Position numbers and translations under genes: made by a program
Notes under the pieces: generated by a model
The model's database searches: none
What the model was told of the DNA's origin: nothing
The model's input: the letters and a program-made list of their open reading frames with translations, nothing else
NCBI GenBank assembly: GCA_015066365.1
Contig: SVON01000003.1
Location: 61,416 to 125,415, forward strand
Length of the DNA stretch: 64,000 bases
Direction of reading: 5' to 3'
Source: Oscillospiraceae bacterium
Lineage (GTDB): Bacteria > Bacillota > Clostridia > Oscillospirales > Acutalibacteraceae
Shown here: positions 1-28,612 of the stretch, piece by piece
Layout of the letters: every line of letters begins with the position of its first letter
Position numbering within the stretch: the stretch's first letter is position 1

Positions 1-619
1 GCACGCGGTGCACAACGCCACCTACGTCCTCATCGCTTCTCCGGTGGGTTCGTACTACAAAGAAGGCATCAACCCGGTGAAGATTATGATCGAGACCGAA
101 GATGTGCGTGCGGTGCGCGGCGGCACCGGTGAAGCCAAGTGCGGCGGCAACTACGCCGCATCCAACCGGGCCGGCAAGCGGGCGGAGGAAAAGGGCTATT
201 CTCAGGTGCTGTGGCTGGACGGTGTCCACCGCAAGTACATTGAGGAGGTGGGCGCCATGAACGTGATGTTCAAGATCAAGGGCGAGATCGTCACCCCGGC
301 GCTGTCCGGCTCCATCCTGCCCGGCATCACCCGCAAGTCCATCATCGAGGTGCTGAAAGACAAGGGCTACACCGTGTCCGAGCGGCTCTTATCCATCGAC
401 GAGCTGACCGCCGCTATGGCGGACGGCACCTTGGAAGAGGCCTGGGGCTGCGGTACCGCCGCGGTGGTGTCTCCCATCGGCGAGCTGGCCTATGAGGGCA
501 GGCAGTATCCCGTCAACGGCGGCGAAATCGGCCCCGTGACCCAGATGCTGTACGATACCCTCACCGGCATTCAGTGGGGCAAGACCCCCGACCCCTACGG
601 CTGGACCGTGCAGCTGTAA
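1..619 (+). CDS. ilvE: branched-chain amino acid aminotransferase, C-terminal part (5' end outside window; reading frame of ORF 8..619)
   Basis: ORF is open to the window edge. Translation resembles fold-type IV aminotransferases (GGTGEAKCGGNYAAS, EEVGAMNVMF, GITRKSIIE). A terminator follows. Confidence 0.85.
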   Translation, partial: HAVHNATYVLIASPVGSYYKEGINPVKIMIETEDVRAVRGGTGEAKCGGNYAASNRAGKRAEEKGYSQVLWLDGVHRKYIEEVGAMNVMFKIKGEIVTPALSGSILPGITRKSIIEVLKDKGYTVSERLLSIDELTAAMADGTLEEAWGCGTAAVVSPIGELAYEGRQYPVNGGEIGPVTQMLYDTLTGIQWGKTPDPYGWTVQL

Positions 620-629
620 ATTGAGAGAA

Positions 630-665
630 AGGCTCACAAGGTCATCCACCTTGTGAGCCTTTTTA
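630..665 (+). terminator. rho-independent terminator of ilvE
   Basis: aggctcacaagg / ccttgtgagcct stem followed by a T-run. Confidence 0.75.
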
Positions 666-687
666 TGTGTGGTGAATAGACCAAAGG

Positions 688-817
688 CCCCCTTGTGCAA
701 AGGGGGCTGTCAGCCGTTAGGCTGACTGGGGGATTGTTAATTGACAAAACGTGTGTGTAGTTGACAATCCCTCCGACCTCGCTATCGCTCGGCCACCTCC
801 CTTTACACAAGGGAGGC
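688..817. repeat. hairpin-rich intergenic repeat element (three short GC hairpins)
   Basis: Hairpins at 688-706 (cccccttgtgcaaaggggg), 709-726 (gtcagccgttaggctgac) and 796-816 (cctccct..agggagg). Segment 772-817 is closely similar to 19518-19562. Confidence 0.5.
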
Positions 818-842
818 TACGGGGAACTTCGTTGTTTGAAAG

Positions 843-871
843 TTGACTTTTAATAGGTGTAATGATACAAT
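843..871 (+). promoter_or_regulatory. sigma-A type promoter for the AT-rich orphan gene
   Basis: TTGACT (843-848), 17-bp spacer, TACAAT (866-871). Confidence 0.5.
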
Positions 872-906
872 TAATAAAGGTTGTGTTGTAAAAGGAGTTG
901 TGCTTT

Positions 907-1575
907 ATGGGTATATTTGCAGATTTAAGAGCGATTGCCAATGTTCAAAAAATCAGAAATGGTAGCACTGCAAAACTCTCTATATCTCAGATTACGAATT
1001 TACTTGTAAATATGATGGATGCTAGAAACAATCTTTCAGTGCAGCAGTACAGAGAAGTTTGTATACTTTTCGAACGACTTCGCAAGGATAAGAAGAAAAT
1101 AAAAGTTGATTACAGGGAATATTTGCGCATTGCTTTAGGAATAATTATGGAATTTGATTTGATTGCACCCTATGAACTCTTTTGTGGAGGGGATAGCGAG
1201 GAGTTCTCTTTGTTATTGAATGCGGTGCGACAAGAAACTAGGCCAAGTGCTGATTTTGAATTGAGTATGGAAGAAAAACAGTACGCCAAAGAATTAGTGA
1301 AAAAGTCAAATGGAATAATTACCGAGGAAGAATCAATAGGTTTTGTCAAAATACTATTATTGCAAGCAAGGTTTGACAAAGAGAAAATTATAGATGCGTT
1401 TGACGACTTTTCATATGATATCGTTAATAAGTGTGGCGAGATTTCCTCTATAGCTAAAGTATCGTTTTTTATAGGAGCTTTGAATGCTAATGGTATCATT
1501 AGCGAAAGTGAAATGCATGAAATGAATGATTCTTTTAATAAAGTGATTATGGAAACACTTATGAATAAACAATAA
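907..1575 (+). CDS. hypothetical protein encoded in an AT-rich island
   Basis: ATG at 907 lies 9 nt after AAAGGAG. The 222-aa protein looks mostly helical and I recognise no motif. Composition is sharply A/T-rich compared with the flanks. Confidence 0.7.
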   Translation: MGIFADLRAIANVQKIRNGSTAKLSISQITNLLVNMMDARNNLSVQQYREVCILFERLRKDKKKIKVDYREYLRIALGIIMEFDLIAPYELFCGGDSEEFSLLLNAVRQETRPSADFELSMEEKQYAKELVKKSNGIITEEESIGFVKILLLQARFDKEKIIDAFDDFSYDIVNKCGEISSIAKVSFFIGALNANGIISESEMHEMNDSFNKVIMETLMNKQ

Positions 1576-1593
1576 AAAATCTCGCCGCCCCAC

Positions 1594-1622
1594 TTGACAA
1601 ACCGGTGGGGTGGTGCTATAAT
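1594..1622 (+). promoter_or_regulatory. consensus sigma-A promoter of the T-box operon
   Basis: TTGACA (1594-1599), 17-bp spacer, TATAAT (1617-1622). Confidence 0.7.
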
Positions 1623-1644
1623 TCCTTTAACACTTTAACTTGTG

Positions 1645-1911
1645 AAATGCGTTGACGGAGAATTTCTCGTTCATCCGAACGTCCCAGAGAGCCGCCGTTG
1701 CTGTGAGGGCGGCACGTTCCGAATGAGAGTCTGGCTCCTGAGCAGAGTGCCCCAACCCTTTTGGCAGTAGGGCATTACGGCTTGCCCCGTTACCATGGCA
1801 GGAGGCTTGTTGGAGCCTTGCAGAGTGACCGCTTATGCGGTAATTAGGGTGGTACCACGGAATGACATTTCGTCCCTAAGGCATAGTATTGCCTTAGGGT
1901 TTTTTATTTTT
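1645..1911 (+). promoter_or_regulatory. T-box riboswitch leader (tRNA-sensing transcription attenuator)
   Basis: Stem I K-turn pair GCGUUGACGGAG / CUCCUGAGC. AG-bulge CAGAGAG with a distal loop. T-box motif AATTAGGGTGGTACCACGG at 1842-1860. Terminator ccctaaggc/gccttaggg (1874-1899) plus T-run, whose 5' arm can pair with TAGGG of the T-box as an antiterminator. Confidence 0.85.
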
Positions 1912-1948
1912 GGCGTGCCAACACGCGCACACAGAGGAGAGAGTTTGT

Positions 1949-3313
1949 ATGAAACACATCCGCATCGCCGACACGACCTTGTGTCAGGGTAACTACACCT
2001 TCAAGGAGAAGATCGAGATGGCCCGCCAGTTGGAAAAACTGGGGGTGGACGTGATCGAGCTGCCCGCCATCACCGAGGTGCGCTCCGACACCCTGTTGGT
2101 GCGCACCATGGCCTCCTTTGTGAAGAATGCCATTCTGTCGGTGGCGGCGGGTGTCACCGCCGAGAGCGTGGAGTTGGCGGCTGCCGCCCTGGAGGGTGCC
2201 GCCAAGCCCCAAATCCGTATTCAGCTGCCGGTGTCCCCGGTGGGGATGGAATACACCTGCCACAAAAAGGCGGATAAGATGCTGGGTTGGATCTCCGAGA
2301 TCGTTGCCGCCGCCAAGCAAAAGGGCGTGGCGGTGGAATTCTGCGCCGTGGACGCCACCCGTGCCGACGACGGCTATCTGCAGAAAGCCATTGATGCCGC
2401 CACCGAGGCCGGGGCGGATACCGTCTCCGTGTGGGATTCCACCGGTGGTCGTCTGCCGGACGATTTCGCCGCCTTTGTGAACGAGATCAAGACCGACCTG
2501 CCCCTGGGCGTGGCCTGCGATAACCAAAACGGCCTGGCCGCTGCCTCCGCCATTTTGGCGGTGCAGGCCGGCGCCGACTGCGTCAAGACCGCCATCGGCG
2601 GTGCCATCACCGACCTTGTCACCTTTGCAACGATGGTGAAAAACTGCGGCGACAGCTACGGCTTTGCCACCGGCATCCGTTACACCGAGATGGGCCGCAT
2701 CGTGGGGCAGATCGCCTGGATCACCGACCCGGCCCGCAACGAGAAGCCCGCCGGTGTCACCGCCACCGCCGCTGAGGGTATCCAGCTGGACGCCAACGAC
2801 GACCGGGAGGCGGTTGCTGCTGCGGTAGCCAAACTGGGCTACGACCTGTCCGAGGAAGACTCCGCCCGCGTCTATGAGGAGTTTTGCCGGGTGGCGGAGA
2901 AAAAGACGGTGGCCGCCAAGGAACTGGAGGCCATCGTGGCCAACGTGGCTATGCAGGTACCGGACGCTTATCAGTTGGTCAGCTACGTCATCAACTCCGG
3001 TAACATCATCTCCGCTTCCGCACAAATCTCGTTACAGCGCGACGGAAAAACCCTCCAGAGCGTGTCCATCGGGGATGGCCCCATCGACGCCGCCTTCAAG
3101 GCGATTGACCAGATCATCGGTCACCACTACGAGCTGGACGATTTCCAGATTCAAGCGGTCACCGAGGGCAAAGAGGCGGTGGGTCAGGCGCTGGTGAAGC
3201 TCCGTGACCGGGGACGGCTCTATTCCGGCACCGGTATCTCCACCGACATTCTGGGCGCCTCTCTGCGGGCCTATCTCAACGCCGTTAATAAGATCATTTA
3301 TGAGGAGGGTTAA
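1949..3313 (+). CDS. 2-isopropylmalate/citramalate synthase-like protein with degenerate catalytic motifs and an intact LeuA-type C-terminal regulatory domain
   Basis: ATG at 1949 follows GAGGAGAG. The HMGL-like fold is recognisable (IADTTL.., VDVIELP, EFCAVDATR), as is a C-terminal LeuA_dimer-like region (GDGPIDAAFKAID...TEGKEAVGQA...G.GISTDILGAS). The canonical RDGEQ and HxH motifs are replaced. Confidence 0.75.
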   Translation: MKHIRIADTTLCQGNYTFKEKIEMARQLEKLGVDVIELPAITEVRSDTLLVRTMASFVKNAILSVAAGVTAESVELAAAALEGAAKPQIRIQLPVSPVGMEYTCHKKADKMLGWISEIVAAAKQKGVAVEFCAVDATRADDGYLQKAIDAATEAGADTVSVWDSTGGRLPDDFAAFVNEIKTDLPLGVACDNQNGLAAASAILAVQAGADCVKTAIGGAITDLVTFATMVKNCGDSYGFATGIRYTEMGRIVGQIAWITDPARNEKPAGVTATAAEGIQLDANDDREAVAAAVAKLGYDLSEEDSARVYEEFCRVAEKKTVAAKELEAIVANVAMQVPDAYQLVSYVINSGNIISASAQISLQRDGKTLQSVSIGDGPIDAAFKAIDQIIGHHYELDDFQIQAVTEGKEAVGQALVKLRDRGRLYSGTGISTDILGASLRAYLNAVNKIIYEEG

Positions 3314-3316
3314 CGA

Positions 3317-5821
3317 ATGAAACTCTCTTTTTCAACCAAGGGGTGGCATAGTCCCACCTTTGAGCAGTTCTGCGACGTGGCGAAAGACCTGCGTTTTCAG
3401 GGCATTGAACTGCACAATATCTACAACCGCCTGTTCACCGACAAGGACGGCGCTTTTCACGATTACGCTGCCGCGGCGACCCGTCGCCGCCTGTTTGAAA
3501 AGGGGCTGGATATCCCCTGCATCGACACGGTGTGCAACGCTTCTGACGGTCCCACCGACCGGGCGGTGGAGGAGATCACCCGGTGCGTGGAGATCGCCGC
3601 CAATCTGTCCATCCCCTGCGTGCGGTTGAAGGCCGCTGACGCCGAGGATAAAGAGGCCGCTGTGGCGCAGGTGTCGGCGTTGGTTCAGCGGATGCTGCCC
3701 ACCGCCGAGTCACAAAAGGTGACGCTGATTATCGAAACCTCCGGTCTGTTTGCCGATACGGCGGTGCTCCGCGATCTGCTGGACCGCTTTGCCAGCGATC
3801 ACGTAGCGGCGCTGTGGCATTGGTCTGCCGCCTATTTCGGCGGCGGCGAAACGCCGGAGCAGGTGATTAAGAACCTGGGTGCCTACGTGCGCCACGTCCA
3901 CGTCAGCGATGCCGTCTGTCACGAGGCGGGTCTGGAATACTGTCTGATGGGGGAGGGCGATCTGCCGGTCAAGGAGCTGATGCTGGCTCTGCGCTCGGTC
4001 AACTACGACGGCTTTATCTCGCTGGTGTGGGATCCGGTCTGGTGCCCCGAACTGGACGATATGGAGGTGATCCTCACCCAGTTTGTCCACTATATGCGCC
4101 AGTTTGGGGATACCTCCCGCAACGAGAGCGCCCTCTACTGGAATCGCGCCCATACCGGTAAATACGTGTGGGAAAAGGACCGGCTTATCGACTGCACCTT
4201 CTCTCAGGTGCTGGATCGGATGGTGGAGGAATTCCCCGATCAGTACTGCTTCAAGTACACCACCCTGGATTACACCCGCACCTACGCCCAGTTCCGGGAC
4301 GACGTGGACGAGTGTGCCCGCGCCCTGATCGCCATGGGGGTCAAGGCCGGCACCCACGTGGCGGTATGGGCCTCCAACGTGCCCCAGTGGTACATCGCCT
4401 TTTGGGCGACGGTAAAGCTGGGCGCGGTGCTGGTGACGGTGAACACCGCCTATAAGATTCACGAGATCGAGTATCTTCTGCGCCAGTCGGATAGCCACAC
4501 CCTGATTATGACCGAGGGGGCCAAGGATTGCCACTACGGCAAGATCGTGGCAGAGCTTTGCCCGGAACTGGCCTCGCTGAAACCCGGTCAGCCCCTCCAC
4601 GCCAAGCGCCTGCCTTTTCTGCGCAACGTGGTGACGGTGGGCTATCGGCAAAAGGGCTGTCTGGAGTGGAACGACCTGATGGAGCGGGCATCGCAAACCC
4701 CGCTGTCTGAGGTGCACCGGATGGCCGCCTTGGTCAACAAGGACGACGTGTGCAATATGCAGTATACCTCCGGCACCACCGGCTTCCCCAAGGGCGTGAT
4801 GCTGACCCACTACAACGTGGTGAACAACGGCAAATACATCGGCGACCACATGGAGCTGTCCACCGCCGACCGGATGATGATCCAGGTGCCGATGTTCCAT
4901 TGTTTCGGTATGGTGTTGAGTATGACCGCCAGTATGACCCACGGCACCACCATGTTGCCCCTGCCGTATTTCTCGCCCAAGCCGGCGCTGGCCTGCGTCC
5001 ACAATGAGCACGTCACCGCCTTTAACGGCGTGCCCACCATGTTTATTGCGATGATGCAGCACCCGGATTTTGAAAAGACGGATTTCTCCTATCTGCGTAT
5101 CGGCATTATGGCGGGCTCCAACTGCCCCGCCGACCTGATGAAGGAGGCCGCCAACGGACGGATGGGGATGAAGGAGATCGTGTCGGTGTATGGCCAGACC
5201 GAGGCCGCCCCCGGCTGTACGATGAGCAGCTACTACGACTCGCTGGAGGTGCGTACCGAAACGGTGGGCAGCGCCTTTGCCAACGTAGAGTGCAAGATCA
5301 TTGACCCCGAGACCGGTGCCGATTGTCCGGATGGGGTCAATGGCGAGTTCGTGGCCCGGGGCTATAACATTATGAAGGGGTATTACAAGATGCCCGCCGC
5401 CACCGCCGAGGCCATCGACGCTCAGGGCTGGCTTCATACCGGCGACCTGGCCTGCCGCCGCCCCGACGGCAACTATAACATCACCGGCCGTCTGAAGGAT
5501 ATGATCATCCGGGGCGGCGAAAATATCTATCCCAAAGAGATTGAGGAATTTATCTATACCTGCCCCAAGGTGCGGGACGTGCAGGTCATCGGTGTGCCGG
5601 ACGAGAAGTACGGCGAGGAGATCATGGCCTGCGTCATTCTCAAGGAGGGGGAACGGATGACCGAGACGGAAATGTCTCAGTATATCGCCGCCCATATGGC
5701 CCGGCACAAGGTGCCCCGCTACATCCGATTTGTGGAAAAATTTCCTATGAATGCCGCGGGCAAAATTCTTAAATATAAGATGAGAGAAGAAGCCGAGGCG
5801 TGGATCAAAAGTAAGGAGTGA
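3317..5821 (+). CDS. fusion protein: N-terminal xylose-isomerase-like TIM barrel (sugar phosphate isomerase/epimerase family) plus C-terminal AMP-dependent acyl-CoA synthetase/ligase
   Basis: RBS GAGGAGGG precedes the ATG. Residues 1-~270 are TIM-barrel-like (GIELHN.., IIETSG, HVHVSD, ISLVWD). The C-terminal ~560 aa carry ANL motifs (YTSGTTGFPKGVMLTH, GYNIMKGYY, TGDL, GRLKDMIIRGGENIYP). Confidence 0.8.
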   Translation: MKLSFSTKGWHSPTFEQFCDVAKDLRFQGIELHNIYNRLFTDKDGAFHDYAAAATRRRLFEKGLDIPCIDTVCNASDGPTDRAVEEITRCVEIAANLSIPCVRLKAADAEDKEAAVAQVSALVQRMLPTAESQKVTLIIETSGLFADTAVLRDLLDRFASDHVAALWHWSAAYFGGGETPEQVIKNLGAYVRHVHVSDAVCHEAGLEYCLMGEGDLPVKELMLALRSVNYDGFISLVWDPVWCPELDDMEVILTQFVHYMRQFGDTSRNESALYWNRAHTGKYVWEKDRLIDCTFSQVLDRMVEEFPDQYCFKYTTLDYTRTYAQFRDDVDECARALIAMGVKAGTHVAVWASNVPQWYIAFWATVKLGAVLVTVNTAYKIHEIEYLLRQSDSHTLIMTEGAKDCHYGKIVAELCPELASLKPGQPLHAKRLPFLRNVVTVGYRQKGCLEWNDLMERASQTPLSEVHRMAALVNKDDVCNMQYTSGTTGFPKGVMLTHYNVVNNGKYIGDHMELSTADRMMIQVPMFHCFGMVLSMTASMTHGTTMLPLPYFSPKPALACVHNEHVTAFNGVPTMFIAMMQHPDFEKTDFSYLRIGIMAGSNCPADLMKEAANGRMGMKEIVSVYGQTEAAPGCTMSSYYDSLEVRTETVGSAFANVECKIIDPETGADCPDGVNGEFVARGYNIMKGYYKMPAATAEAIDAQGWLHTGDLACRRPDGNYNITGRLKDMIIRGGENIYPKEIEEFIYTCPKVRDVQVIGVPDEKYGEEIMACVILKEGERMTETEMSQYIAAHMARHKVPRYIRFVEKFPMNAAGKILKYKMREEAEAWIKSKE

Positions 5822-5826
5822 CCGCT

Positions 5827-6630
5827 GTGGTCGGACAATATAAAGTGATGGACGCCCACTGTCACGTCTATCCCGCCGCCATCGCCGCCAAAGCGGTGGC
5901 GGGGACCGATGCCTTTTATGGGGTCAAATCGGTGTACGACGGCACGGTGGAAACCCTGCTGGACAAGGAGATCGCCGCCGGGGTGGACCACTGTGTCATC
6001 CAGTCGGTGGCCACCACCCCTAAGCAGGTTAGTAGCATCAACGAGTTTATCGCCCGCACCGTGGCGGCGGGGGAGGGTCGGTTCACCGGCCTGGGCACCC
6101 TCCATCCGGACAGCACCGATTTGGTCGGGGATGTGAACCACATTCTGGAATTGGGGCTCAAAGGCGTAAAACTCCATCCCGACATTCAGGCGTTCAAGAT
6201 CGACGATTATCGGTGCCTGAAAATCTACGAACTGTGTGAACAGCACCACCTTCCGGTGCTGCTCCATACCGGAGACGACCGATACGATTATTCCAACCCC
6301 AACCGCCTATTGCCGGTGCTGGAGATCTACCAGGATCTCACCTTTATCGGCGCTCATCTGGCGGGCTATTCCATCTGGGAGGAGGCCTGCGACAAGCTGG
6401 GCCACGCCCCCAACCTGTACGTGGATTGTTCCTCGTCCTTCTTCTGCCTGTCTACGGAAAAGGCGGAGGAACTGATGCGCCGCTGGGGCGCTGACCGCGT
6501 GCTATTCGGCACGGATTACCCCATGTGGGCGGCGGATAAGGAGCTGGCCACCCTGCTGTCGATGCACTTTAGCGAAGAGGAGTTCAAAAAGATTTTGTGG
6601 GATAATGCGTACCGTCTGTTTGTGGAATAA
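5827..6630 (+). CDS. amidohydrolase-2 family metal-dependent hydrolase/decarboxylase-like protein
   Basis: Motifs MDAHCHVYP, GVKLHPD, PVLLHTGD, AHLAG, LFGTDYPMW. Start is uncertain: GTG 5818 overlaps the upstream stop, GTG 5827 lies 8 nt after AAGGAG, and ATG 5848 is also possible. Confidence 0.8.
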   Translation: MVGQYKVMDAHCHVYPAAIAAKAVAGTDAFYGVKSVYDGTVETLLDKEIAAGVDHCVIQSVATTPKQVSSINEFIARTVAAGEGRFTGLGTLHPDSTDLVGDVNHILELGLKGVKLHPDIQAFKIDDYRCLKIYELCEQHHLPVLLHTGDDRYDYSNPNRLLPVLEIYQDLTFIGAHLAGYSIWEEACDKLGHAPNLYVDCSSSFFCLSTEKAEELMRRWGADRVLFGTDYPMWAADKELATLLSMHFSEEEFKKILWDNAYRLFVE

Positions 6631-6641
6631 CAGAACCAAAA

Positions 6642-6670
6642 AAGAGCCGAGGCGTTAGCCTCGGCTCTTT
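6642..6670. terminator. bidirectional rho-independent terminator between convergent genes
   Basis: aagagccgaggc / gcctcggctctt 12-bp arms with a 4-nt loop. Confidence 0.7.
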
Positions 6671-6678
6671 CCGATTTC

Positions 6679-6885
6679 TCACGTCTGATATTCCAAAATG
6701 TCACCGACGTTGCACTCCAGCGCCTCGCAAATGGCCGCCAGGGTGGAAAAACGCACCGCCGTCACCTTGTTGTTTTTGATCTTGGAGAGGTTGACGTTGG
6801 AGATGCCCACCCGCTCAGCCAGTTCATTGAGGGACATTTTTCGCTCCACCATCATCCGGTCCAATCGGAGAACGATCTTACCCAT
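6679..6885 (-). CDS. small XRE/Cro-type helix-turn-helix transcriptional regulator
   Basis: 68 aa starting MGKIVLRLDRMM..., with HTH segment SLNELAERVGISNVNLSKI. RBS AAGGAGG. Sits directly downstream of the membrane-protein gene. Confidence 0.85.
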   Translation of the reverse strand: MGKIVLRLDRMMVERKMSLNELAERVGISNVNLSKIKNNKVTAVRFSTLAAICEALECNVGDILEYQT

Positions 6886-6895
6886 ACCGCCCTCC

Positions 6896-7456
6896 TTACA
6901 GCAGACCGTCCACGTCCTGCTCCAGCTGGGCACCGTGGACGAAGATCTGGGTCAGGCACAGCACGAGCACCCCCATAAAGACGCCGTTCATATCCATACT
7001 GTTCTCGGTGGCGTCCACGCCGGTGATCAGACGGACGACGATACTCATGATCAGGCCCACCACCGGCACGGCGATGGAGAAATAGCCGATCTCCCGCATC
7101 CTGCGGATGTTGTCCTTTTGGAAGGGGGAGGCGTTTTCGGAGTTCTTAAAGATCAAATGCAGGTTGCGGAATACCAGCGCCATCACCGCCAGGATAAGGG
7201 TGGCCCCGATGCCAAACAGCAGAAAGGCGGTCCAATCCATCTCACCGTGGATCACCGGCACGTTGGTCTGAAAGCCGTACACCGTCAGGGTGGCACCGCA
7301 GCACTCCTTGGCCTCAAAGCCTACAAAGTATTTGACCCACTCCGGCTGAATGGCGGCACATACGGTGGCGGCGGCCATCAGGGCGGTTCCCACCCAATGG
7401 AATACCTCCAAAATCTTAGCCAGTATGTTTCCGAGTTTATAGAAATTCTTTTTCAT
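6896..7456 (-). CDS. multi-pass membrane protein (DUF2975-like partner of the small HTH regulator)
   Basis: ATG at 7456 follows AGGAGG. Several hydrophobic segments. The gene pair arrangement is typical of DUF2975 plus HTH; the family assignment is from memory. Confidence 0.65.
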   Translation of the reverse strand: MKKNFYKLGNILAKILEVFHWVGTALMAAATVCAAIQPEWVKYFVGFEAKECCGATLTVYGFQTNVPVIHGEMDWTAFLLFGIGATLILAVMALVFRNLHLIFKNSENASPFQKDNIRRMREIGYFSIAVPVVGLIMSIVVRLITGVDATENSMDMNGVFMGVLVLCLTQIFVHGAQLEQDVDGLL

Positions 7457-7489
7457 AAAGCAGACCTCCTTGGTGGTTTCTTTACCACA

Positions 7490-7544
7490 AGCATAGCACA
7501 AATTTTAATGTTTGTCAATAGGAATTTATCGATAAACATTAAAA
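7490..7544 (-). promoter_or_regulatory. promoter overlapped by a 14-bp-arm palindrome (candidate operator of the XRE regulator)
   Basis: On the minus strand: TTGACA (7513-7518), 17-bp spacer, TATGCT (7490-7495). Inverted repeat ttttaatgtttgtc (7503-7516) / gataaacattaaaa (7531-7544) has one mismatch and overlaps the -35. Confidence 0.5.
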
Positions 7545-19092: not shown

Positions 19093-19169
19093 GGGCCTTT
19101 AACTCAGTTGGTTAGAGTAGCCGGCTCATAACCGGTCAGTCCCGGGTTCAAGTCCCTGAAGGCCCACCA
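19093..19169 (+). tRNA. tRNA with CAU anticodon (elongator Met or lysidine-modified Ile2; not initiator-like)
   Basis: Cloverleaf: acceptor GGGCCTT/AAGGCCC, D stem ACTC/GAGT, anticodon loop CTCATAA, T loop TTCAAGT, encoded CCA. Confidence 0.9.
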
Positions 19170-19235
19170 GAGTTCATTCGGACCTCGCGGTCCGTTTTTA
19201 CATAGCGGCCCACCCCACGGTGGACTCGCCCATAT

Positions 19236-19311
19236 AGGGGTATAGCTCAGTTGGTAGAGCAGCGGTCTCCAAAACCGCGTGTCGTGAGTTCGAATCTTAC
19301 TGCCCCTGCCA
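19236..19311 (+). tRNA. tRNA-Trp (anticodon CCA)
   Basis: Acceptor AGGGGTA/TGCCCCT, anticodon loop CTCCAAA, T arm GTGAG-TTCGAAT-CTTAC, encoded CCA. Confidence 0.92.
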
Positions 19312-21326: not shown

Positions 21327-21476
21327 AATTATCACCCAATATCAAAATAACACGAAAAATATCAATAGTCAAGTAGACTTTTCTCTTATATTGATATAGT
21401 ATGGTAGCAATAAATTGTTTCTCTGCGGTGGCTTCTCTGGCGATTTGGCACCTCAGGCGAGAAAGGAAGTGTGACA

Positions 21477-23396
21477 ATGCAGAACTATACACGCAATCTG
21501 CTGGCCTTGTTGTGTGCGGTAGCGATGCTTTTCTCTCTGGTTTCCTGCGGCACGCAGGCTCAGGGTGAGGAGGGCGAAGCCCCCAACAAGGTGGAGGCTA
21601 ACAGCGTGGCGAAGATCTTGGAGCGGGACGGCTATCTGGAGGGGATCTGGTGGCCTTGGTTTACCCACGACGATCTGGGCCATGGTCTGACCGCCAACGA
21701 GACTATGGTAAAGTATGTGAGCAACGCTTGGTCTACGGTGGGCGTGGACAAGTATAGCGATAAATATCTGCTGGAGCAGATCTATAACCTGAAGGCTTTG
21801 GGCTTTAACATTATGGGTTATGAAGGCTCGATCTACGCAGAGGGCGTCATTTTTGACGAAGCCGGCGATGTGCTGGGCATTAAGGAGGATTACCTCCAGA
21901 ATGTCCGCCGTCTGCTGAACGTCTGCCGTCAGGCCGAGATGCCGGTGCTGTGGACGGTGTGCTGTCACTCCACCTCGGCGGTTTCCTATTACAATCTGGA
22001 GGTTTGGTACCGGATGACCCAGATGTATGCGGTCAAGGAGGTAGCCGACCACTATGTTGAGCGATTTGTCAAACCGTTGTGCGCGGTGCTGGCAGAATAT
22101 CCGGACGTGGTGGTGATGTGTGCCACCACCTCTGAGGTAGAGAACGAGATGAACGACCCCGATATGGGCAACTTCACCGAGCATCGGGAAACCTATGGCG
22201 TCACCAAAGAGTCGATGCTATATTTTGTCAACGCGGTGGCGGATACCCTGGCGGCAGAGCTGCCGAACGTGGATCGCACCCTCTGCGGTAGCACCGACAA
22301 TATGACCATGTACTCCGAGACCAACCTGACCTTTATCGGTCACCAAGAGTATAATGCCAACGCTTCTGCCGACGACATTTCTAAATTCCGTTCTCCGTTG
22401 CCGATGTTGGCCACCGAGTTCGGCTTGGGCGACGGCAAATATCCCACCGAGGACGAGCTGGTCGATGCCCAGCTTACCTTCCGGAATAATTTCAAGAGCA
22501 AGGGCTGGAGCGGATGGTTTATGTGGTGCTGGTCCAATCAGTCCGGCGGTAGTTCTTATGACCTGATTGCCAAAAACGGTGGGATTACCGATTTCCGCAA
22601 GGTGGCCTATGAGATCCACGATTATATTGAGGAATACCGGGCGGAGTATCGGGGCGAGACCCTTTCGGTCAACACCCCCACTATGTTCTTTCACTCCGGC
22701 GACGGCCTGGTAGAGTGGATAAAGCCTACCCAGTCTCACACCTATAAGCTGGAGCGATCGCTGAACGGCGGCGCTTGGACCACCATCGCCACCACCGGCG
22801 CTACGGTGGATTCTGTGGGCCGTAAATACACCTATCAGGACACCACCCTGCCCACCAACGGCAAGGTGCAGTACCGGGTGATTGTTACCTCCGGCGGCAA
22901 GACCGTCACCTCCCTCTCCAACGTGGTGGACGTTCTGCCTCCTGCCCAGAACCTGGCGCAGAATGGCGGCTTTGAGGATGGACTGACCGGCTGGACCAAG
23001 TTTGGTAGTGACGGCACCTACCGGGCTACCAACGCCACCGCCCACACCGGCTCTTACAGTTTGGAGCTGGATTATGGCAGCGGCGAGTGGCAGGGGATGT
23101 ATCAGCCCGCCCTTCAGGTGAAGCCGAACACCAACTACACCCTGACGTATTACTACAAACACGCCGGCGACGATACCGCCAACAACTGCTATTGCTTTGT
23201 ACGCGGCGGGGATGGCACCATTAATGCGGCGGAGATCGTTGGCCAGGCCTATATGAACGGCGGCAACACCACCGAATGGAAGAAGGAGACCATTTCCTTC
23301 CGCACCGGTGACAGCGATAAGCTGTGCATCGACTTCCGTGTGGTAGCCGGCACGCACACCTATATCGACGACGTTATGTTGGTCGAATTGCTGTAA
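21477..23396 (+). CDS. secreted lipoprotein glycoside hydrolase, clan GH-A-like (beta/alpha)8 (GH5-like, family unresolved), plus Fn3/Ig-like and C-terminal CBM4/9-like domains
   Basis: Lipobox LVSCG. IYNLKALGFNIMGYEGS, VENEMND (candidate acid/base) and LATEFGLGDG (candidate nucleophile). C-terminus NGGFEDGLTGW...KPNTNYTLTYYYK. Paralogs at 47129 and 55013. Confidence 0.7.
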   Translation: MQNYTRNLLALLCAVAMLFSLVSCGTQAQGEEGEAPNKVEANSVAKILERDGYLEGIWWPWFTHDDLGHGLTANETMVKYVSNAWSTVGVDKYSDKYLLEQIYNLKALGFNIMGYEGSIYAEGVIFDEAGDVLGIKEDYLQNVRRLLNVCRQAEMPVLWTVCCHSTSAVSYYNLEVWYRMTQMYAVKEVADHYVERFVKPLCAVLAEYPDVVVMCATTSEVENEMNDPDMGNFTEHRETYGVTKESMLYFVNAVADTLAAELPNVDRTLCGSTDNMTMYSETNLTFIGHQEYNANASADDISKFRSPLPMLATEFGLGDGKYPTEDELVDAQLTFRNNFKSKGWSGWFMWCWSNQSGGSSYDLIAKNGGITDFRKVAYEIHDYIEEYRAEYRGETLSVNTPTMFFHSGDGLVEWIKPTQSHTYKLERSLNGGAWTTIATTGATVDSVGRKYTYQDTTLPTNGKVQYRVIVTSGGKTVTSLSNVVDVLPPAQNLAQNGGFEDGLTGWTKFGSDGTYRATNATAHTGSYSLELDYGSGEWQGMYQPALQVKPNTNYTLTYYYKHAGDDTANNCYCFVRGGDGTINAAEIVGQAYMNGGNTTEWKKETISFRTGDSDKLCIDFRVVAGTHTYIDDVMLVELL

Positions 23397-23402
23397 GGAG
23401 GG

Positions 23403-25997
23403 ATGGCTGTGAAACTGAAACAAATACTTTCTTTTGCGCTGTCCCTTTCTTTGCTGATCGGTCTGCTGTTGGTGGTGCCGATCATCCGAGTCGCCGCCGC
23501 GGACAATCTGGCGGCTAACGGCGACCTGGAGATGGGTAACACCAACGGCTGGGAGGTTGCCAACGCGTCGGTGGACAGCAGTGTGAAATACGCCGGCAAC
23601 TATTCCTTGAAGCTGACCGCTATCTCTGCGTACAGCGGCGCGGCCTATAAGATCGTGCCGGTGGGCAAGGGCGCTACCGTCACCGTGTCCTTCTATTATC
23701 GGTACGCCTCTGATCCCGGCAGCAAGACCTATCACGTGTATACCTATATGGGCTCAAACGCCAACGCAGGACCTTACAACAACGCGGATAAAACGTTTAG
23801 CGCTCCCAGCGGGTGCGAGTCTATCTCCACGTGGAAACAGATCTCCTACACCTTCAACAGCGGCGACTACGCCAATATTTATCTGAAGTTCTGCCCCGGC
23901 GGCAGCGGCGGTACCGCTTGCTACATCGATAATCTGGTGGTCACCTCCACCGGCGGTACGACGGAGAAGGTAGACCCTTATCTCACCTCCTTTGGCACCA
24001 AGTACAACCGCCCCGCATCCGCCAGCTATAACCTGATCAAAAACGGTGGCTTTGAGTCCACCTCCGACGCTCCGTGGAACACCGCCTCTTTCTTAAAGGG
24101 GAATCTGTCGGTGATTACCGATCTAGGTGCCTACGCAGGCGAAAAAAGCCTGTATTTTGACGCGGGCGACACCGCCACCTCCGCCTGGCACACCTTCCCG
24201 GTGGCGGTGGAGAAATACACCCAATACACCTTCTCGGCGTGGGTGAAAGCGCCCCGCTTGAGCGCTACCAACCGGGCCACCGCCACCTTTGGCGTGGCCA
24301 ATGCGGAGACCGGCAACTTCCTCGTCTATGAGCCGTATAACGGCAACGGTTATGGCGCAGCATCGATTTCCACTCCGGAAATGCAGTTGATGGCACCCTC
24401 TCCGGATGGGGCGTGGCACCTGCGGTCGGTGACCTTCTATTCCGGCACCGCCTCTCAGGTCAACGTGGCGATCTCCGGCAGCCAGAGTCAGCTGTATTTG
24501 GACGATATCGCTCTGTATAAGAGCGCCTACGGCGTGGAGTACATCAGCGAACGGCGGACCGGCACCATCACCGCCCAGAACAATACTGGCAATAAATACT
24601 GTGCGGATGCGGATTCTCTGATTCCCGCCCCCCAGATGACCGGTAAAGCGGCGCAGCAGCATTGGTCGGACAATCCGGCGTGGCGCAACGGCTTTATGTC
24701 CTTTACGGACACCGGCGACAGCCACGGCACGGCGCTGAAATACACCGCCTCGGCCAGGCCGCTGAAGCTGGCTTACATCGACTGGATCGACGTGCAGCCG
24801 AATACCTCCTACACCCTAACGATGGACGTAAAGCGGGTGCGTGCCGGCGATGGGCGCATAGCGCTGCTGGATGATCAGATTCTGAATCCGGCTGAGTTCT
24901 ATACGGTGCCTTTCTCTGCGACGGATACCGCCTGGAAGACCTATTCCATCACCTTTAACACCGGGGTGTATTCCCGCATTGGTTTTGCCATTGTGGATGG
25001 CGGCGGTACGGTATATCTTGATAAAACCCGCCTGTTTAAGACCTCTCAAGCCGTTGCTACCGAGCCGGAGGATAGCGAAATGCCGGTGCTCAAGCCCACC
25101 GGTGGCAAGACCAGCGTAATGGAGATGGGGGATACCGCCCCCACCGACGTCATCCGAAACGGCGGATTTGAGCAGGGCTCCCTGACGGATTATATCGGGT
25201 ATCAGTCCACGGTGATTTCCGCTGCGGCGGCGCATACCGGCGCCTATGGTGCCCATCTGAAGGGGGATGGCTCTTGGGGCGCTATGCTGGAGCAGGTCAA
25301 CATCCCGGTGAAGGACGGTAAGGTCTACACCTTCACGTATTGGTACAAAGCCAATTCCAGCGGTGCGAATATCACGCTCAAGGGCAATACCACCAACACC
25401 CAGTACGCCTATGCTTGGGTGAACAACGGAGAGTGGACCAAGGTGACGGCCACCTTTGCGGTAGAGGGGGACACCGCTCTATGGCTTAACGCTTGCGGTG
25501 GCGGAGACGGCAAAAAAGAGGACGTGTATCTGGATGAACTTTCTCTTGTGGAGCGGGATTCCGGGTCCACCCTGGGTATCGCTTTTATGATGGAACTGGA
25601 CGCTTTGGGCGTGATGCGCAATGAGCGATTGGAAACGGTCCTCTCCAACGCGACGGTGGATGCCTATGGCAACGGAGAGGCGTACCGTCTGGTGCAGATG
25701 GGTGCGGTGATGACCAATAAGGCCTCGGTGGGCACCGATCCTGCGTTGTTCAAACGGGATAACCTGGACGCCGAGAGCCGTATAGTGGACATACCGGCGG
25801 TGTATCTGAACAGCGTTTCCGAAGCCAACGTTACTTTTGCGGTGCGTGTGATCAACGTACCCCGCCGTTCGGCCAACGTGGTGGTCTATGCTCGTCCTTA
25901 CTACGTGTTTGCAAAGGATGGGGAAGAGATCGTGGTGTACGGCGACATTTACAGTCGCAGCTATAACAATTCCGGCGAGGATATTTTGCTGGATTAA
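23403..25997 (+). CDS. secreted multi-CBM (CBM4/9-like jelly-roll array) protein with no recognisable catalytic domain
   Basis: Signal peptide. At least four modules of the form NG(D/G)(L/F)E..(G/S)...W...(K/Q)PNT.YT(F/L). The start could instead be GTG 23409, which has better spacing from AAGGAGG. Paralog at 48757. Confidence 0.7.
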   Translation: MAVKLKQILSFALSLSLLIGLLLVVPIIRVAAADNLAANGDLEMGNTNGWEVANASVDSSVKYAGNYSLKLTAISAYSGAAYKIVPVGKGATVTVSFYYRYASDPGSKTYHVYTYMGSNANAGPYNNADKTFSAPSGCESISTWKQISYTFNSGDYANIYLKFCPGGSGGTACYIDNLVVTSTGGTTEKVDPYLTSFGTKYNRPASASYNLIKNGGFESTSDAPWNTASFLKGNLSVITDLGAYAGEKSLYFDAGDTATSAWHTFPVAVEKYTQYTFSAWVKAPRLSATNRATATFGVANAETGNFLVYEPYNGNGYGAASISTPEMQLMAPSPDGAWHLRSVTFYSGTASQVNVAISGSQSQLYLDDIALYKSAYGVEYISERRTGTITAQNNTGNKYCADADSLIPAPQMTGKAAQQHWSDNPAWRNGFMSFTDTGDSHGTALKYTASARPLKLAYIDWIDVQPNTSYTLTMDVKRVRAGDGRIALLDDQILNPAEFYTVPFSATDTAWKTYSITFNTGVYSRIGFAIVDGGGTVYLDKTRLFKTSQAVATEPEDSEMPVLKPTGGKTSVMEMGDTAPTDVIRNGGFEQGSLTDYIGYQSTVISAAAAHTGAYGAHLKGDGSWGAMLEQVNIPVKDGKVYTFTYWYKANSSGANITLKGNTTNTQYAYAWVNNGEWTKVTATFAVEGDTALWLNACGGGDGKKEDVYLDELSLVERDSGSTLGIAFMMELDALGVMRNERLETVLSNATVDAYGNGEAYRLVQMGAVMTNKASVGTDPALFKRDNLDAESRIVDIPAVYLNSVSEANVTFAVRVINVPRRSANVVVYARPYYVFAKDGEEIVVYGDIYSRSYNNSGEDILLD

Positions 25998-26006
25998 ATA
26001 AGCCCC

Positions 26007-26036
26007 AAAAGGATGTCGGTTAACCGGCATCCTTTT
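26007..26036 (+). terminator. rho-independent terminator
   Basis: aaaaggatgtcgg / ccggcatcctttt. Confidence 0.75.
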
Positions 26037-26130
26037 TGCTTATTTTGGCTCGTTGACACGGCGCGGACACCGTGGTATAATGAGGGGCGTAGCGGCGTGA
26101 TGCCGTAATTTCCGCAAGAGAGGCTAGATT

Positions 26131-27537
26131 ATGAAACGATGGCTTAGTATCCTGCTGGCTGTGCTGATGTTGGTGGCGATGACCGCCTGCGGCGACAGCG
26201 GCAAAGAAAAAAACGAAACCAAAAGACCTTCGATGGATCCGGCGGATTACGTGGCGCCGGAGCCGTTGGTGTACACCGAGCTGCCCAAGAACCTTAAGGC
26301 GGAACAGGTGGGCTCCTTCTCCGGTGAGGCCAAAGCCACCAACGGAGGTCTGTATTACAAAGAGGGGGACAAATACGGCATTATGACCCTCAACGGCCTG
26401 GTGGATTCCGGCCCGATTTACACGGTTTGTCAGCCCAATAAGCAGTATTTTATGGTGGCAAAGACGGTGGGCGATACCACCAAGGTGACCACCGCCAACG
26501 TGGTGGGTCTGGTGGATGCCCTGGGTCGGGAGATCATCCCGATGAAATACGCCTCCATTGAGCTGATCGGTGAGCGTTTTGCCCGTGTGGCGGAGCTGAC
26601 CGGTACCACCGATAAGGAAGAGGAAAAACTCACCAAATTTGCCGATCAGAAGGGAAATACCGTGCTGTGCACCGGTAATTGGTACCTCTATGACCTAAAG
26701 ACCGGTCAGCCGGTACCCGGCGCCACCGGCACCAAGCCGTATATCAGCTTTGACTGCGGCGGCTACGTCAAATACGTGACCGACGCCAAAAAATCGGTGG
26801 TGGCCACCCCGGACGGCAAAGCCCTGCCGGAAGAACCCATTCACCTGAAAAACGGCTATTACGCCATCAAGTCCACCCATACGGTGTACAGCAGCGAGGG
26901 CGTGAAGCTGTTCTCCTACGACCCCAAGGTGTATACACCGGTAGAAAGTGAGAGCATCGAGGGCTTTATTCTGGCTGAAAAGCAGGAGAAGGGCAACAAG
27001 ACCTACGTCCTGCTCAACGAAAAGGGTGAGGTTGCCTCAGCGGTGTTTGATCACAAACCGGAGCAACACGGTACGCTGTTCCACGTGGGCAAGGCACTGG
27101 TAAAGCTGGACGGCACTCCGGTGGTAAAGGCCGGTTGCAACAGCGTGTATTGGGAGCCCGTTTACGGTCAGAGCTGGGCGGTCAGCGACGGCAAGACCAC
27201 CAAAGTGGTGGATGCCACCGGTCGGGTGGTGTTTGAGAATAAGACCACCGGCTCTAAGGTGGATACCAAGCTGATGCTGTGCTATAAGAGTGGCAGCGAG
27301 AAGCGGTATTACTATTCTTCTAAAGACAAGGGCTTTACCGTCGGCGGTGCCGGTCTGGCCCCCTTCCTGGTCAAAAAGGCCAACGGCACCACCAGCTACG
27401 ACGTGGTGAACGTGCTCAATGGCGAGGTGATTTTGACTGGTTATACCGACTATACCGTGTCGGATGCCGGCGATACGTTAGTGTATGTATATGCAAAAAA
27501 GCCGGATGGCAACACCGACGTTTTCGTAGTGCGATAA
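26131..27537 (+). CDS. lipoprotein, probable WG-repeat (KWG-like beta-repeat) protein
   Basis: Lipobox MTACG. Repeated (K)YG(I/L)..(L)NG/(D)..G(R/K)E(I)IP.KY-type segments. Confidence 0.6.
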   Translation: MKRWLSILLAVLMLVAMTACGDSGKEKNETKRPSMDPADYVAPEPLVYTELPKNLKAEQVGSFSGEAKATNGGLYYKEGDKYGIMTLNGLVDSGPIYTVCQPNKQYFMVAKTVGDTTKVTTANVVGLVDALGREIIPMKYASIELIGERFARVAELTGTTDKEEEKLTKFADQKGNTVLCTGNWYLYDLKTGQPVPGATGTKPYISFDCGGYVKYVTDAKKSVVATPDGKALPEEPIHLKNGYYAIKSTHTVYSSEGVKLFSYDPKVYTPVESESIEGFILAEKQEKGNKTYVLLNEKGEVASAVFDHKPEQHGTLFHVGKALVKLDGTPVVKAGCNSVYWEPVYGQSWAVSDGKTTKVVDATGRVVFENKTTGSKVDTKLMLCYKSGSEKRYYYSSKDKGFTVGGAGLAPFLVKKANGTTSYDVVNVLNGEVILTGYTDYTVSDAGDTLVYVYAKKPDGNTDVFVVR

Positions 27538-27554
27538 TCCAATAGATACAAATA

Positions 27555-27597
27555 ACAGACAGGCACCGTTCGTAAGAGGGTGTCTGTTTGTTTTTTT
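27555..27597 (+). terminator. rho-independent terminator
   Basis: acagaca...tgtctgt stem plus a long T-run. Confidence 0.7.
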
Positions 27598-27715
27598 GGG
27601 TGCGTTGGGAGGGGGGTGTGAAACAACCGCATACCGCCCTCTAACGACCGCATAGAGCAAACGGCTTGCTCGGAGCAAGCGCGTGTGTTATTCTGAAATG
27701 GGAAGGAGGAAGCCT

Positions 27716-28150
27716 ATGAAAGTGACCACCATCGTGGATCCGACCTGTAAAGAAGAAGAAGTGATCATCCGGGTGCGTAGCCGCAACGAGCTGAGTGAAA
27801 AAATGGAACGCCTGGCAGCAGGAGAAACCGCAGAACTAATGGGTTTTCTGGAAGATAAAGCGGTGATTCTCGACTATGTGAAGGTGCATCGCTTTACAGT
27901 GGAGAAGGACAAGATCTATGCCCATTGTGCCGATAATGTCTATTGGGTCAAGCGCCGCTTGTATCAAATTGAGCAGAATGCCCCGGATTGCTTTGTGAAG
28001 ATTCATCAATCCTGCCTGGCAAACGTGCATCAGATCGCTCGGTTTGAGACGGCTTTCACCGGCACCCTGCGCGTGGTGTTTAAGAACGGGGACGTGGACT
28101 ACGTTTCCCGGCGCAATCTCAAACAAGTGAAAGAAAGGTTTGGGCTGTAA
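27716..28150 (+). CDS. LytTR-domain DNA-binding protein without a receiver domain
   Basis: C-terminal LytTR-like segment FVKIHQSCLANVHQIARFE....LRVVFKNGDVDYVSRR. RBS GGAAGGAGG. Confidence 0.8.
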   Translation: MKVTTIVDPTCKEEEVIIRVRSRNELSEKMERLAAGETAELMGFLEDKAVILDYVKVHRFTVEKDKIYAHCADNVYWVKRRLYQIEQNAPDCFVKIHQSCLANVHQIARFETAFTGTLRVVFKNGDVDYVSRRNLKQVKERFGL

Positions 28151-28153
28151 GTT

Positions 28154-28558
28154 ATGAATAAATATGCAAAAGAATTTTTCCACCGCGGCTTGCTGTTTGC
28201 CGGCTTTGGGCCGGTGGTGGCCGGGGTGGTGCTCGCCTGTGTCCCGGCGGAAAACCTGACCGGAGGCCAGGTGCTTCTGGCGGTGGTGTCCACCTATCTC
28301 CTGGCGTTTATCCACGCCGGAGCCAGCGTGTTTCAACAGATCGAGCATTGGCCCCTGGCCAAATCTCTCCTCTGCCATTTTGGTTCACTCTATCTGGCCT
28401 ATTCGCTGTGTTACCTGGTGAATTCCTGGATTCCGTTCGACCCGGTGGTGCTGGGCATCTTTACCGGCATCTTTGTGGCGGTGTACTTCGTGGTGTGGGG
28501 TGTGGTGGTGCTTTGCCTGCGTGCCGCTGGCAAAGCGCTGAACCGGCATATCCATTGA
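28154..28558 (+). CDS. four-TM membrane protein (DUF3021-like partner of LytTR proteins)
   Basis: 134 aa with four hydrophobic segments. Starts 3 nt after the LytTR stop. Family assignment is from memory. Confidence 0.65.
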   Translation: MNKYAKEFFHRGLLFAGFGPVVAGVVLACVPAENLTGGQVLLAVVSTYLLAFIHAGASVFQQIEHWPLAKSLLCHFGSLYLAYSLCYLVNSWIPFDPVVLGIFTGIFVAVYFVVWGVVVLCLRAAGKALNRHIH

Positions 28559-28569
28559 ACAAAAACAAA

Positions 28570-28601
28570 AAACGCCTCTCCCAACCGGGAGAGGCGTTTT
28601 T
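28570..28601. terminator. bidirectional terminator
   Basis: aacgcctctcc / ggagaggcgtt stem flanked by A-run and T-run. Confidence 0.8.
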
Positions 28602-28612
28602 GCTTTTCGGTT

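Follow-up and report, generated by a model that had tools for sequence, protein, structure and literature searches.

What might a bacterium gain from an operon that is headed by a leucine T-box and encodes a catalytically dead relative of LeuA, a fusion of a TIM barrel to an acyl-CoA ligase, and an amidohydrolase? The question is raised by a stretch of 64,000 nucleotides from an Oscillospiraceae bacterium (contig SVON01000003.1, positions 61,416 to 125,415; hereafter, the window), in which the three genes follow one another on the plus strand. An earlier note, made from the letters of this DNA, had proposed that they form a salvage module for branched-chain acids, in which isovalerate is activated with CoA on the way to leucine. 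The leucine specifiers of the leaders, the linkage of the operon to a VorB-class 2-oxoacid:ferredoxin oxidoreductase (OFOR) and the aminotransferase IlvE, and the presence of sister ligases under valine and isoleucine T-boxes all support this reading, each check suggested in the note that lends itself to computation gave a favorable outcome, and we assign a probability of about 0.6 to the proposal that the operon would be the leucine arm of a three-armed branched-acid salvage system.

The comparisons reported here draw on the 80 best of at least 600 species-representative genome stretches (one genome per species) that encode a relative of the fusion, confirmed as matches in the scan; the related loci compared with the window are labeled L001, L004 and so on. 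The 80 loci come from Acutalibacteraceae, Oscillospiraceae and Ruminococcus metagenome-assembled genomes, mostly from the guts of ruminants and other herbivores. One of the labeled loci, L004, is the window's own contig in a public metagenome and shows the genes that lie upstream of window position 1. The features of the locus in the window are the following.

1594-1622, plus strand: sigma-70 type promoter, TTGACA-17 nt-TATAAT (12/12 consensus matches; best site within 600-7000)
1643-1880, plus strand: T-box leader, Leu-specific (RF00230, 114.8 bits against a gathering score of 93)
1874-1905, plus strand: intrinsic terminator of the T-box, a 10-bp stem CCCTAAGGCA/TGCCTTAGGG followed by a T run (hairpin 1874-1899)
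1949-3313, plus strand: LeuA-like pseudoenzyme, 454 aa from ATG (HMGL-like and LeuA_dimer domains in Pfam)
3317-5821, plus strand: fusion open reading frame (ORF), 834 aa (PF01261, PF00501 and PF13193)
3317-4111, plus strand: N-terminal xylose-isomerase-like TIM-barrel domain of the fusion, active site decayed (PF01261, family alignments)
4214-5821, plus strand: ANL-superfamily acyl-CoA synthetase domain of the fusion (PF00501, PF13193), proposed isovalerate-CoA ligase
5827-6630, plus strand: amidohydrolase-2 enzyme (PF04909), 267 aa from GTG 5827 (Pfam, start-site evidence)
6639-6672, no strand assigned: GC-rich hairpin with a 15-bp stem at the end of the operon, between convergent genes
8-619, plus strand: 3' part of ilvE, branched-chain aminotransferase (NCBIfam ilvE models)

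The match of the leader to RF00230 spans model positions 1-219 of 219 and is the sole T-box that Rfam detects in the window. The specifier is CUG at 1731-1733, followed by the purine G1734, with the 3' side of the loop reading GAGU-CUG-G in the Rfam alignment, and the T-box sequence GGGUGGUACCACG is found at 1847-1859, with the alternative terminator hairpin downstream. Of 46 orthologous leaders that were aligned, nearly all have CUC as the specifier, and the window, L013 and L022 have CUG; no other codon occurs at this position in any orthologous leader that could be read, and the switch between CUC and CUG is synonymous and preserves leucine specificity. When specifiers were read across loci with a family-specific nhmmer profile and a fixed codon register, the leader before the LeuA-like gene was found to read Leu (CUC or CUG) in 50 loci. 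The leader is, on these features, a predicted leucine-sensing T-box. The LeuA-like and fusion ORFs are separated by 3 nt, and the terminator scan revealed no plus-strand terminator-like site between the three genes, so the arrangement that the earlier note had described, with all three genes behind one T-box, stands. The junction of the fusion and amidohydrolase genes has to be redrawn in part. The GTGA at 5818-5821 is present, as had been noted, and the mechanically called amidohydrolase ORF (5818-6630, 270 aa) begins with a GTG that overlaps the stop codon, TGA, of the fusion. A ribosome-binding site, AAGGAG, lies at 5813-5818, inside the end of the fusion gene and 8 nt upstream of GTG 5827; furthermore, the initiator methionine of the orthologues aligns with residue 4 of the 270-aa ORF, and independent gene calls give a protein of 267 aa. 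These observations together point to GTG 5827, not 5818, as the start, so that the two genes most likely abut with a 5-nt gap and no overlap.

The fusion is genuine. The ORF list and the Pfam matches bear out the 834-aa protein with a TIM barrel and a complete ANL module, and the possibility that it is a frameshift artefact of two genes, which the earlier note had raised, was ruled out: every one of the 120 best protein clusters, at 78-93% identity, has the full length of about 835 aa and all three domains, and at least 600 species-genome stretches encode a relative. Within the window protein, the ANL region extends over residues 300-816, with PF00501 matching residues 300-690 at 301 bits and PF13193 scoring 65 bits. 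The core motifs A3, A5, A7, A8 and the A10 lysine are intact in the translation (YTSGTTGFPKG, YGQTE, HTGD, GRLKDMIIRGGENI and AAGKILK), and the ANL domain is 79% identical to its orthologues, compared with 54% for the TIM domain. The best NCBIfam match is PRK12583 (NF009233), at 641.5 bits under a cutoff of 832. The PRK12583/ACSF2-type ligases are likewise the best-scoring family for two distant TIM-ANL fusions (775 and 536 bits, both also below 832), and such fusions share the ANL subfamily; the window ligase differs from the PRK12583 model in being fused to a TIM barrel, and the substrates of PRK12583 members are mostly uncharacterised. A PDB sequence search with the three proteins of the operon returned generic or uncharacterised relatives alone (Art22, BB4693, and FadD13 or feruloyl-CoA synthetase). 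It is the leucine T-box and the linkage to the oxidoreductase and IlvE that point to isovalerate as the probable substrate of the ligase.

This linkage becomes apparent from the genomic context. The LeuA-like gene is directly 5' of the fusion in 71 of the 80 loci, most exceptions being contig ends, and the amidohydrolase is directly 3' in 55, which answers the earlier note's question of whether the neighborhood is conserved. On the contig of the window, as seen in L004, the T-box operon is preceded by, in this order, two HTH-Cupin_2-ANL ligases (755 and 762 aa), a ParA/Mrp-like gene, a four-subunit OFOR, ilvE and an ORF of low GC content. The upstream operon comprises a Val T-box, an MbcS-like ligase, the ParA-like gene, the delta, alpha, beta and gamma subunits of the OFOR, which are adjacent, and IlvE; the alpha subunit passes the VorB model NF005507 (538.9 bits against 399), and we hereafter refer to the complex as VOR. 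The ilvE gene (8-619) is the last gene of a separate upstream operon and a functional partner on another transcript: the statement of the earlier note that the ligase lies next to ilvE is right as to vicinity, and ilvE is not behind the T-box of the fusion. Across the 80 loci, VOR, IlvE and the ParA-like gene are found within 10 kb of the fusion in about 38-40, in several gene orders. In L040, a Leu T-box (86 bits, CUC), ParA, VOR delta/alpha/beta/gamma, IlvE, the LeuA-like gene, the fusion and the amidohydrolase form a single string; in L082, a Leu T-box is followed by the LeuA-like gene, the fusion, ParA and VOR, without IlvE; and in L071, L073, L077, L081 and L086 the order is LeuA-like gene, fusion, IlvE, ParA, VOR. 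An OFOR under a leucine T-box, for which the earlier note had suggested a search, was thus found in L040 and L082.

The sister ligases extend this picture to valine and isoleucine. The best model for the Cupin-ANL ligases is MbcS (NF047394), at 437.8 bits and below the equivalog cutoff of 850, and they are just 22-27% identical to the ANL domain of the fusion. In L004 a second T-box, before the second Cupin-ANL gene (359-609), scores 87 bits, just below the Rfam gathering score, and so escapes detection at the default threshold; the specifier reads GUA (Val). In L075, Ile (AUC) and Val (GUA) T-boxes precede two consecutive Cupin-ANL genes. Leaders of this kind in the related loci carry GUA or GUC and AUC specifiers, and a Cupin-ANL gene is preceded by a Val T-box 19 times and by an Ile T-box 9 times. 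The two orthogroups of the Cupin-ANL ligases match the T-box type without exception (Val 18/18, Ile 9/9). These ligases of about 760 aa (L004 1-7303) combine HTH_3/HTH_19, Cupin_2 and an MbcS-like ANL domain, an unusual attachment of a DNA-binding and cupin module to a CoA ligase. The ParA/Mrp-like P-loop protein (222 aa; L004 2967-3635; about 37 of the 80 loci) is always encoded between a ligase and VOR delta and has a weak match to the MrpORP Fe-S carrier; it may be a dedicated factor for Fe-S maturation or assembly of VOR.

Under the proposed scheme, uncharged tRNA-Leu would pair with the CUG specifier and the T-box bulge and stabilize the antiterminator, allowing read-through of the three genes from the promoter at 1594-1622. 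The ANL domain of the fusion would convert isovalerate, ATP and CoA to isovaleryl-CoA, the neighboring VorB-class OFOR would carboxylate isovaleryl-CoA reductively to 4-methyl-2-oxopentanoate, and IlvE would transaminate the latter to leucine. In the same manner, isobutyrate would yield valine and 2-methylbutyrate isoleucine through the two MbcS-like ligases under Val and Ile T-boxes, with the OFOR and the transaminase common to all three arms. AMP-forming ligases are effectively irreversible, and the induction of VOR and IlvE upon accumulation of uncharged branched-chain tRNA, together with ligases that turn acids into thioesters, argues for the biosynthetic, carboxylating direction, so this is the probable direction of flux. 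Ruminococci reportedly incorporate isovalerate carbon into leucine by carboxylation, as found by Allison, Bryant and co-workers in the 1960s. The chemistry proposed here is that by which rumen anaerobes carboxylate isovalerate, isobutyrate and 2-methylbutyrate reductively, giving Leu, Val and Ile, and is also that of archaeal-type VOR. The classical work on the rumen was physiological and isotopic, and to our knowledge, which includes a literature search, the activating ligases and their regulation have not been assigned to genes; what differs here is the presence of three dedicated ligases, each with its own T-box control. The closest characterized ligase is the methylbutyryl-CoA synthetase MbcS of Staphylococcus aureus, which in purified form activates 2-methylbutyrate and isobutyrate, with isovalerate a poor substrate (PMC10026030), which would explain why leucine requires a ligase from another subfamily. 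The window ligase resembles MbcS as an AMP-forming enzyme that would salvage exogenous short branched acids to CoA esters, and relatives of MbcS are found in the same clusters under Val and Ile T-boxes; unlike MbcS, it belongs to a PRK12583-like ANL subfamily, carries an N-terminal TIM barrel, has a dead LeuA partner and a T-box, and is linked to VOR and IlvE, that is, to amino-acid synthesis, whereas MbcS is linked to the initiation of fatty-acid synthesis.

The first gene of the operon encodes a protein that is, judged by its residues, unable to make isopropylmalate. The NCBIfam models for LeuA, CimA and homocitrate synthase all score under their cutoffs (the best, 272.8 against 532). In the alignment with the LeuA structures 3ewb and 3rmj, DTTLRDGEQ is replaced by DTTLCQG and a 6-aa deletion, AVDATR stands where an ExEDAxR-type motif is expected (the E of EDA being replaced by V), and HCHNDLG has become ACDNQNG (HxH to AxD); the homologue is degenerate, as had been suspected. 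The positions of the catalytic motifs are hypervariable among 70 LeuA-like orthologues, suggesting that the catalytic loss is old and that these positions are unconstrained. The C-terminal LeuA_dimer domain (PF08502; 113.8 bits, model positions 2-130 of 131) is 69% identical to the orthologues, compared with 49% for the N-terminal barrel, and the motifs GDGP.DA.F, ELDDF and STD...AY..A.NKI of this regulatory domain are at least 95% conserved. The ratio of nonsynonymous to synonymous substitutions (dN/dS), taken only from pairs in which dS is not saturated, is 0.01-0.20 for the two domains. In genuine LeuA, the LeuA_dimer domain binds leucine for feedback inhibition, and this role, together with the conservation of the domain, leads us to propose that the LeuA-like protein might act as a leucine sensor.

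The TIM domain of the fusion has also lost residues of its predicted active site. The match to PF01261 covers residues 20-236 at 75.7 bits (gathering score, 31.1). Structures of this domain and of the amidohydrolase were predicted with AlphaFold2 and compared with the PDB by Foldseek; the TIM model (predicted local distance difference test, pLDDT, 90.6) matches sugar epimerases and isomerases with a probability of 1.0 and TM-scores of 0.7-0.78, and the matches, which include Art22, C-deglycosidase subunits and AsbF, are at the superfamily level and offer no clue to function. Homologues of the TIM domain, sought among 1.84 billion cluster representatives, were of two types: barrels that stand alone, with about 268 aa, and TIM-ANL fusions, the latter down to 33% identity. 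Family alignments show that the motifs ET.G, LWD.HHPYR, H.KDS and SLEW, which we take to be the E-D-H-E metal and catalytic set of sugar epimerases, are nearly invariant in the wider subfamily. The window domain reads LWHWSAAYF, HVSDA and SLVW; it keeps E140 and H195 and carries D168H, K197S, E237V and HH170-171SA, so the E-D-H-E set is incomplete. Among 79 orthologues, residue 168 is D in 43, N in 26, H in 5, Q in 3 and E in 2, residue 237 is E in 43, V in 29 and I in 6, and residue 197 is K in 40. Degenerate forms are scattered among canonical ones of similar overall identity, indicating repeated loss, and the dN/dS of the domain is 0.03-0.20. In locus L095, of lower GC content, the TIM barrel is canonical, the LeuA-like gene is just as dead as in the window and the Leu T-box is present, which shows that the link to the Leu T-box and dead LeuA predates the decay of the barrel. 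Stand-alone barrels of the same subfamily with intact motifs lie near a gene for a LigT-like 2',5' RNA ligase or 2H phosphoesterase on two unrelated Clostridia contigs, L088 (7001-10659) and L090 (7001-9354); this neighbor may hint at the ancestral function of the barrel.

The strong purifying selection on both the LeuA-like protein and the TIM domain, despite their dead sites, argues for non-catalytic and possibly leucine-sensing roles. By analogy, we tentatively suggest that the dead LeuA, as a leucine sensor, and the decayed barrel might constitute a non-catalytic module that provides feedback control or scaffolding of the ligase. The analogy is with HisZ, a catalytically dead paralogue of HisRS that serves as the regulatory subunit of the ATP phosphoribosyltransferase HisG: in both cases, a dead paralogue from the same pathway has kept the part that binds, or may bind, the end product and is encoded beside its possible target enzyme. 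The proteins themselves are unrelated, and binding of leucine and of the ligase by the LeuA-like protein is a proposal, unlike the HisZ-HisG case. A more specific version, in which the two pseudoenzymes form a leucine-sensing allosteric device on isovaleryl-CoA synthetase and the HTH-Cupin domains are the equivalent sensors on the Val and Ile ligases, is speculative, and we hold it to be doubtful. If true, such a device would layer fast protein-level feedback on T-box control and would provide the HisZ principle with a second natural example, one recruited from the same pathway for which the salvage route substitutes. A Leu T-box directly before a leuA-type gene, an arrangement for induction by uncharged tRNA-Leu, is also found in the ilv-leu operon of Bacillus subtilis and before leuA in Geobacter (PMC2700814); unlike in these operons, the leuA-type gene of the window is catalytically dead, and it is followed by the ligase and amidohydrolase genes, not by leuBCD.

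The third protein, which the earlier note had called PF04909-like, matches PF04909 with a score of 109.3 bits against a gathering score of 26.4. The residues D12, H14 and H16 (DxHxH), H96, H120, H150, H180 and D233 are invariant in 28 orthologues, and the gene is under purifying selection by dN/dS. The predicted structure (pLDDT 92.7) is a (beta/alpha)8 fold that matches 3irs, 2dvt and 3s4t; the closest structures are the uncharacterised BB4693 and CAC3332, followed by non-oxidative decarboxylases of the gamma-resorcylate, LigW and aminocarboxymuconate-semialdehyde (ACMSD) types, at 15-24% identity. The amidohydrolase does not neighbor the fusion in 21 loci with room for it, and it accompanies degenerate TIM domains in 32/38 cases and canonical ones in 21/36, a weak and phylogenetically confounded trend. 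We consider the protein to be an accessory, candidate metal-dependent enzyme. That it substitutes for the lost TIM activity was considered and is not claimed, given the weakness and phylogenetic confounding of this trend.

Could the accessory proteins be catalysts after all? The module might then salvage leucine carbon from a conjugated, hydroxylated or carboxylated C5/C6 branched acid instead of free isovalerate, with the amidohydrolase, as a hydrolase, decarboxylase or hydratase, and the intact TIM barrels performing preparatory chemistry before or after CoA activation. This would explain why the ligase is accompanied by three conserved extra folds of catalytic type and is consistent with the retention, under purifying selection, of all metal ligands of the amidohydrolase, with the canonical TIM residues in about half of the orthologues and in the distant relative L095, with the use of another ligase family, free of such extras, by the Val and Ile arms, and, for what the confounded trend is worth, with the commoner occurrence of the amidohydrolase alongside degenerate barrels. 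However, no amidohydrolase adjoins the fusion in the 21 loci with room, IlvE directly follows the fusion in L071, L073, L077 and L086, the catalytic residues of the barrel have been lost repeatedly while the gene was retained, the structure searches yielded only generic superfamily matches, and no neighboring transporter or enzyme points to a candidate substrate; a precursor of this kind is, in our view, unlikely. A different objection concerns the fate of isovaleryl-CoA, which could serve mainly as a primer for iso-odd branched-chain membrane fatty acids, with leucine being sensed as the usual source of the primer. The MbcS-like ligases of the same clusters have precisely this documented role in S. 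aureus (PMC10026030), and scarcity of the primer made from leucine would likewise be registered by a Leu T-box. Nevertheless, Val, Ile or Leu T-boxes govern VOR and IlvE as well, and the induction of these two by starvation fits only biosynthesis; moreover, the inspected loci contain no FabH or other genes of fatty-acid synthesis. We regard a primarily lipid-directed function as improbable, with the proviso that the amino-acid and lipid uses of isovaleryl-CoA are not mutually exclusive. Least probable is that the LeuA-like gene and the TIM domain are functionless leftovers of an ancestral T-box-leuA unit and of an older bifunctional enzyme, which would leave the ANL domain as the only part that counts. 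Catalytic residues are indeed gone from both, their active-site motif regions are hypervariable, and a Leu T-box directly upstream of leuA is known, for example, in Geobacter (PMC2700814); but dN/dS is 0.01-0.2 for both in unsaturated pairs, nearly every related locus, in hundreds of species, retains both as full-length ORFs, and the regulatory domain of the LeuA-like protein is more conserved than its barrel.

The salvage of free isovalerate into leucine, which we favor, has its own difficulties. A TIM barrel, a LeuA relic and an amidohydrolase are all dispensable for the plain activation of isovalerate, which leaves about 1000 residues unexplained. PRK12583 is a generic 'fatty acid CoA ligase family' and is scored below its cutoff, so the chain-length preference of the ligase is not fixed by this match. 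The canonical TIM residues persist in about half of the orthologues, and in these the barrel may still catalyse some reaction. Distant TIM-ANL fusions occur in unrelated contexts, without a LeuA-like gene, VOR or T-box, so the TIM-ANL architecture is older than its leucine role and did not originate for leucine; the relatives in such contexts include the stand-alone barrels L088-L091 and the distant or frameshifted fusions L092-L094 and L096. Some loci have no detectable T-box: none was found upstream in L071, L073, L077, L081 and L086, L077 having been searched with Rfam at E<=1, and other control must operate there. Finally, the literature search found no paper on the cluster. As to the distant fusions, one with an active TIM barrel, split by a frameshift (L093 15438-17149, minus strand), has leuB/leuD/leuC-like genes at a distance of about 5 kb on the other strand, which may be a coincidence.

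The carboxylation chemistry is classical, and VOR, IlvE, T-boxes and MbcS are already known. The literature search returned no description of a Leu/Val/Ile T-box triad wired to three dedicated ligases, of a TIM-ANL fusion or of a dead LeuA as a conserved operon partner; a search on YngI and on T-box/VOR regulons found nothing specific; and no characterised operon of this composition was found, in agreement with the impression recorded in the earlier note. That branched short-chain acids act as growth factors of fibre-degrading rumen bacteria has been recognized since the 1960s, and cattle are fed these acids for that reason; the genes that activate them, and the control of their use, have remained vague. 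If the proposed function is correct, the operon would name genes behind this growth-factor effect. It defines a testable gene set, three ligases wired to tRNA charging plus a shared VOR and IlvE, in hundreds of uncultured Clostridia of herbivore guts, and would allow metagenomes to be used for predicting which gut organisms depend on isovalerate, isobutyrate or 2-methylbutyrate. The locus also offers a clean system for studying the reuse of dead enzymes as regulatory or structural parts.

Several features of the surroundings deserve mention. Between ilvE and the promoter of the T-box operon lies an island of 34% GC (window 801-1600) inside a region of about 60% GC. It contains an ORF (898-1575, plus strand, 225 aa) that has no match in Pfam, NCBIfam, PADLOC or PHROGs. 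None of the 80 related loci carries this ORF, and it therefore has the look of a foreign sequence that was recently inserted, splitting two salvage operons. Downstream, the gene for a small HTH_26 protein of the Cro/C1 type overlaps the start of that for a DUF2975 membrane protein (window 6679-7501, minus strand), a conserved pair that is convergent with the operon. Where the window has this pair, the 79%-identical relatives L001 (13640-22511) and L003 (5315-14186) have a complete aromatic amino-acid operon directly after the Leu module, with genes for an aminotransferase, chorismate mutase/prephenate dehydratase, 3-dehydroquinate (DHQ) synthase, chorismate synthase, shikimate dehydrogenase/kinase, type II 3-dehydroquinase (DHQase II), 5-enolpyruvylshikimate-3-phosphate (EPSP) synthase, prephenate dehydrogenase and DAHP synthase. 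Farther along the window, genes for tRNA-Met(CAT) and tRNA-Trp(CCA) are located at 19093-19311 on the plus strand, and the region 21471-36600 is an unrelated carbohydrate block that encodes two CBM_4_9 proteins, a GH2 beta-galactosidase-like enzyme and a 1001-aa solute-binding protein.

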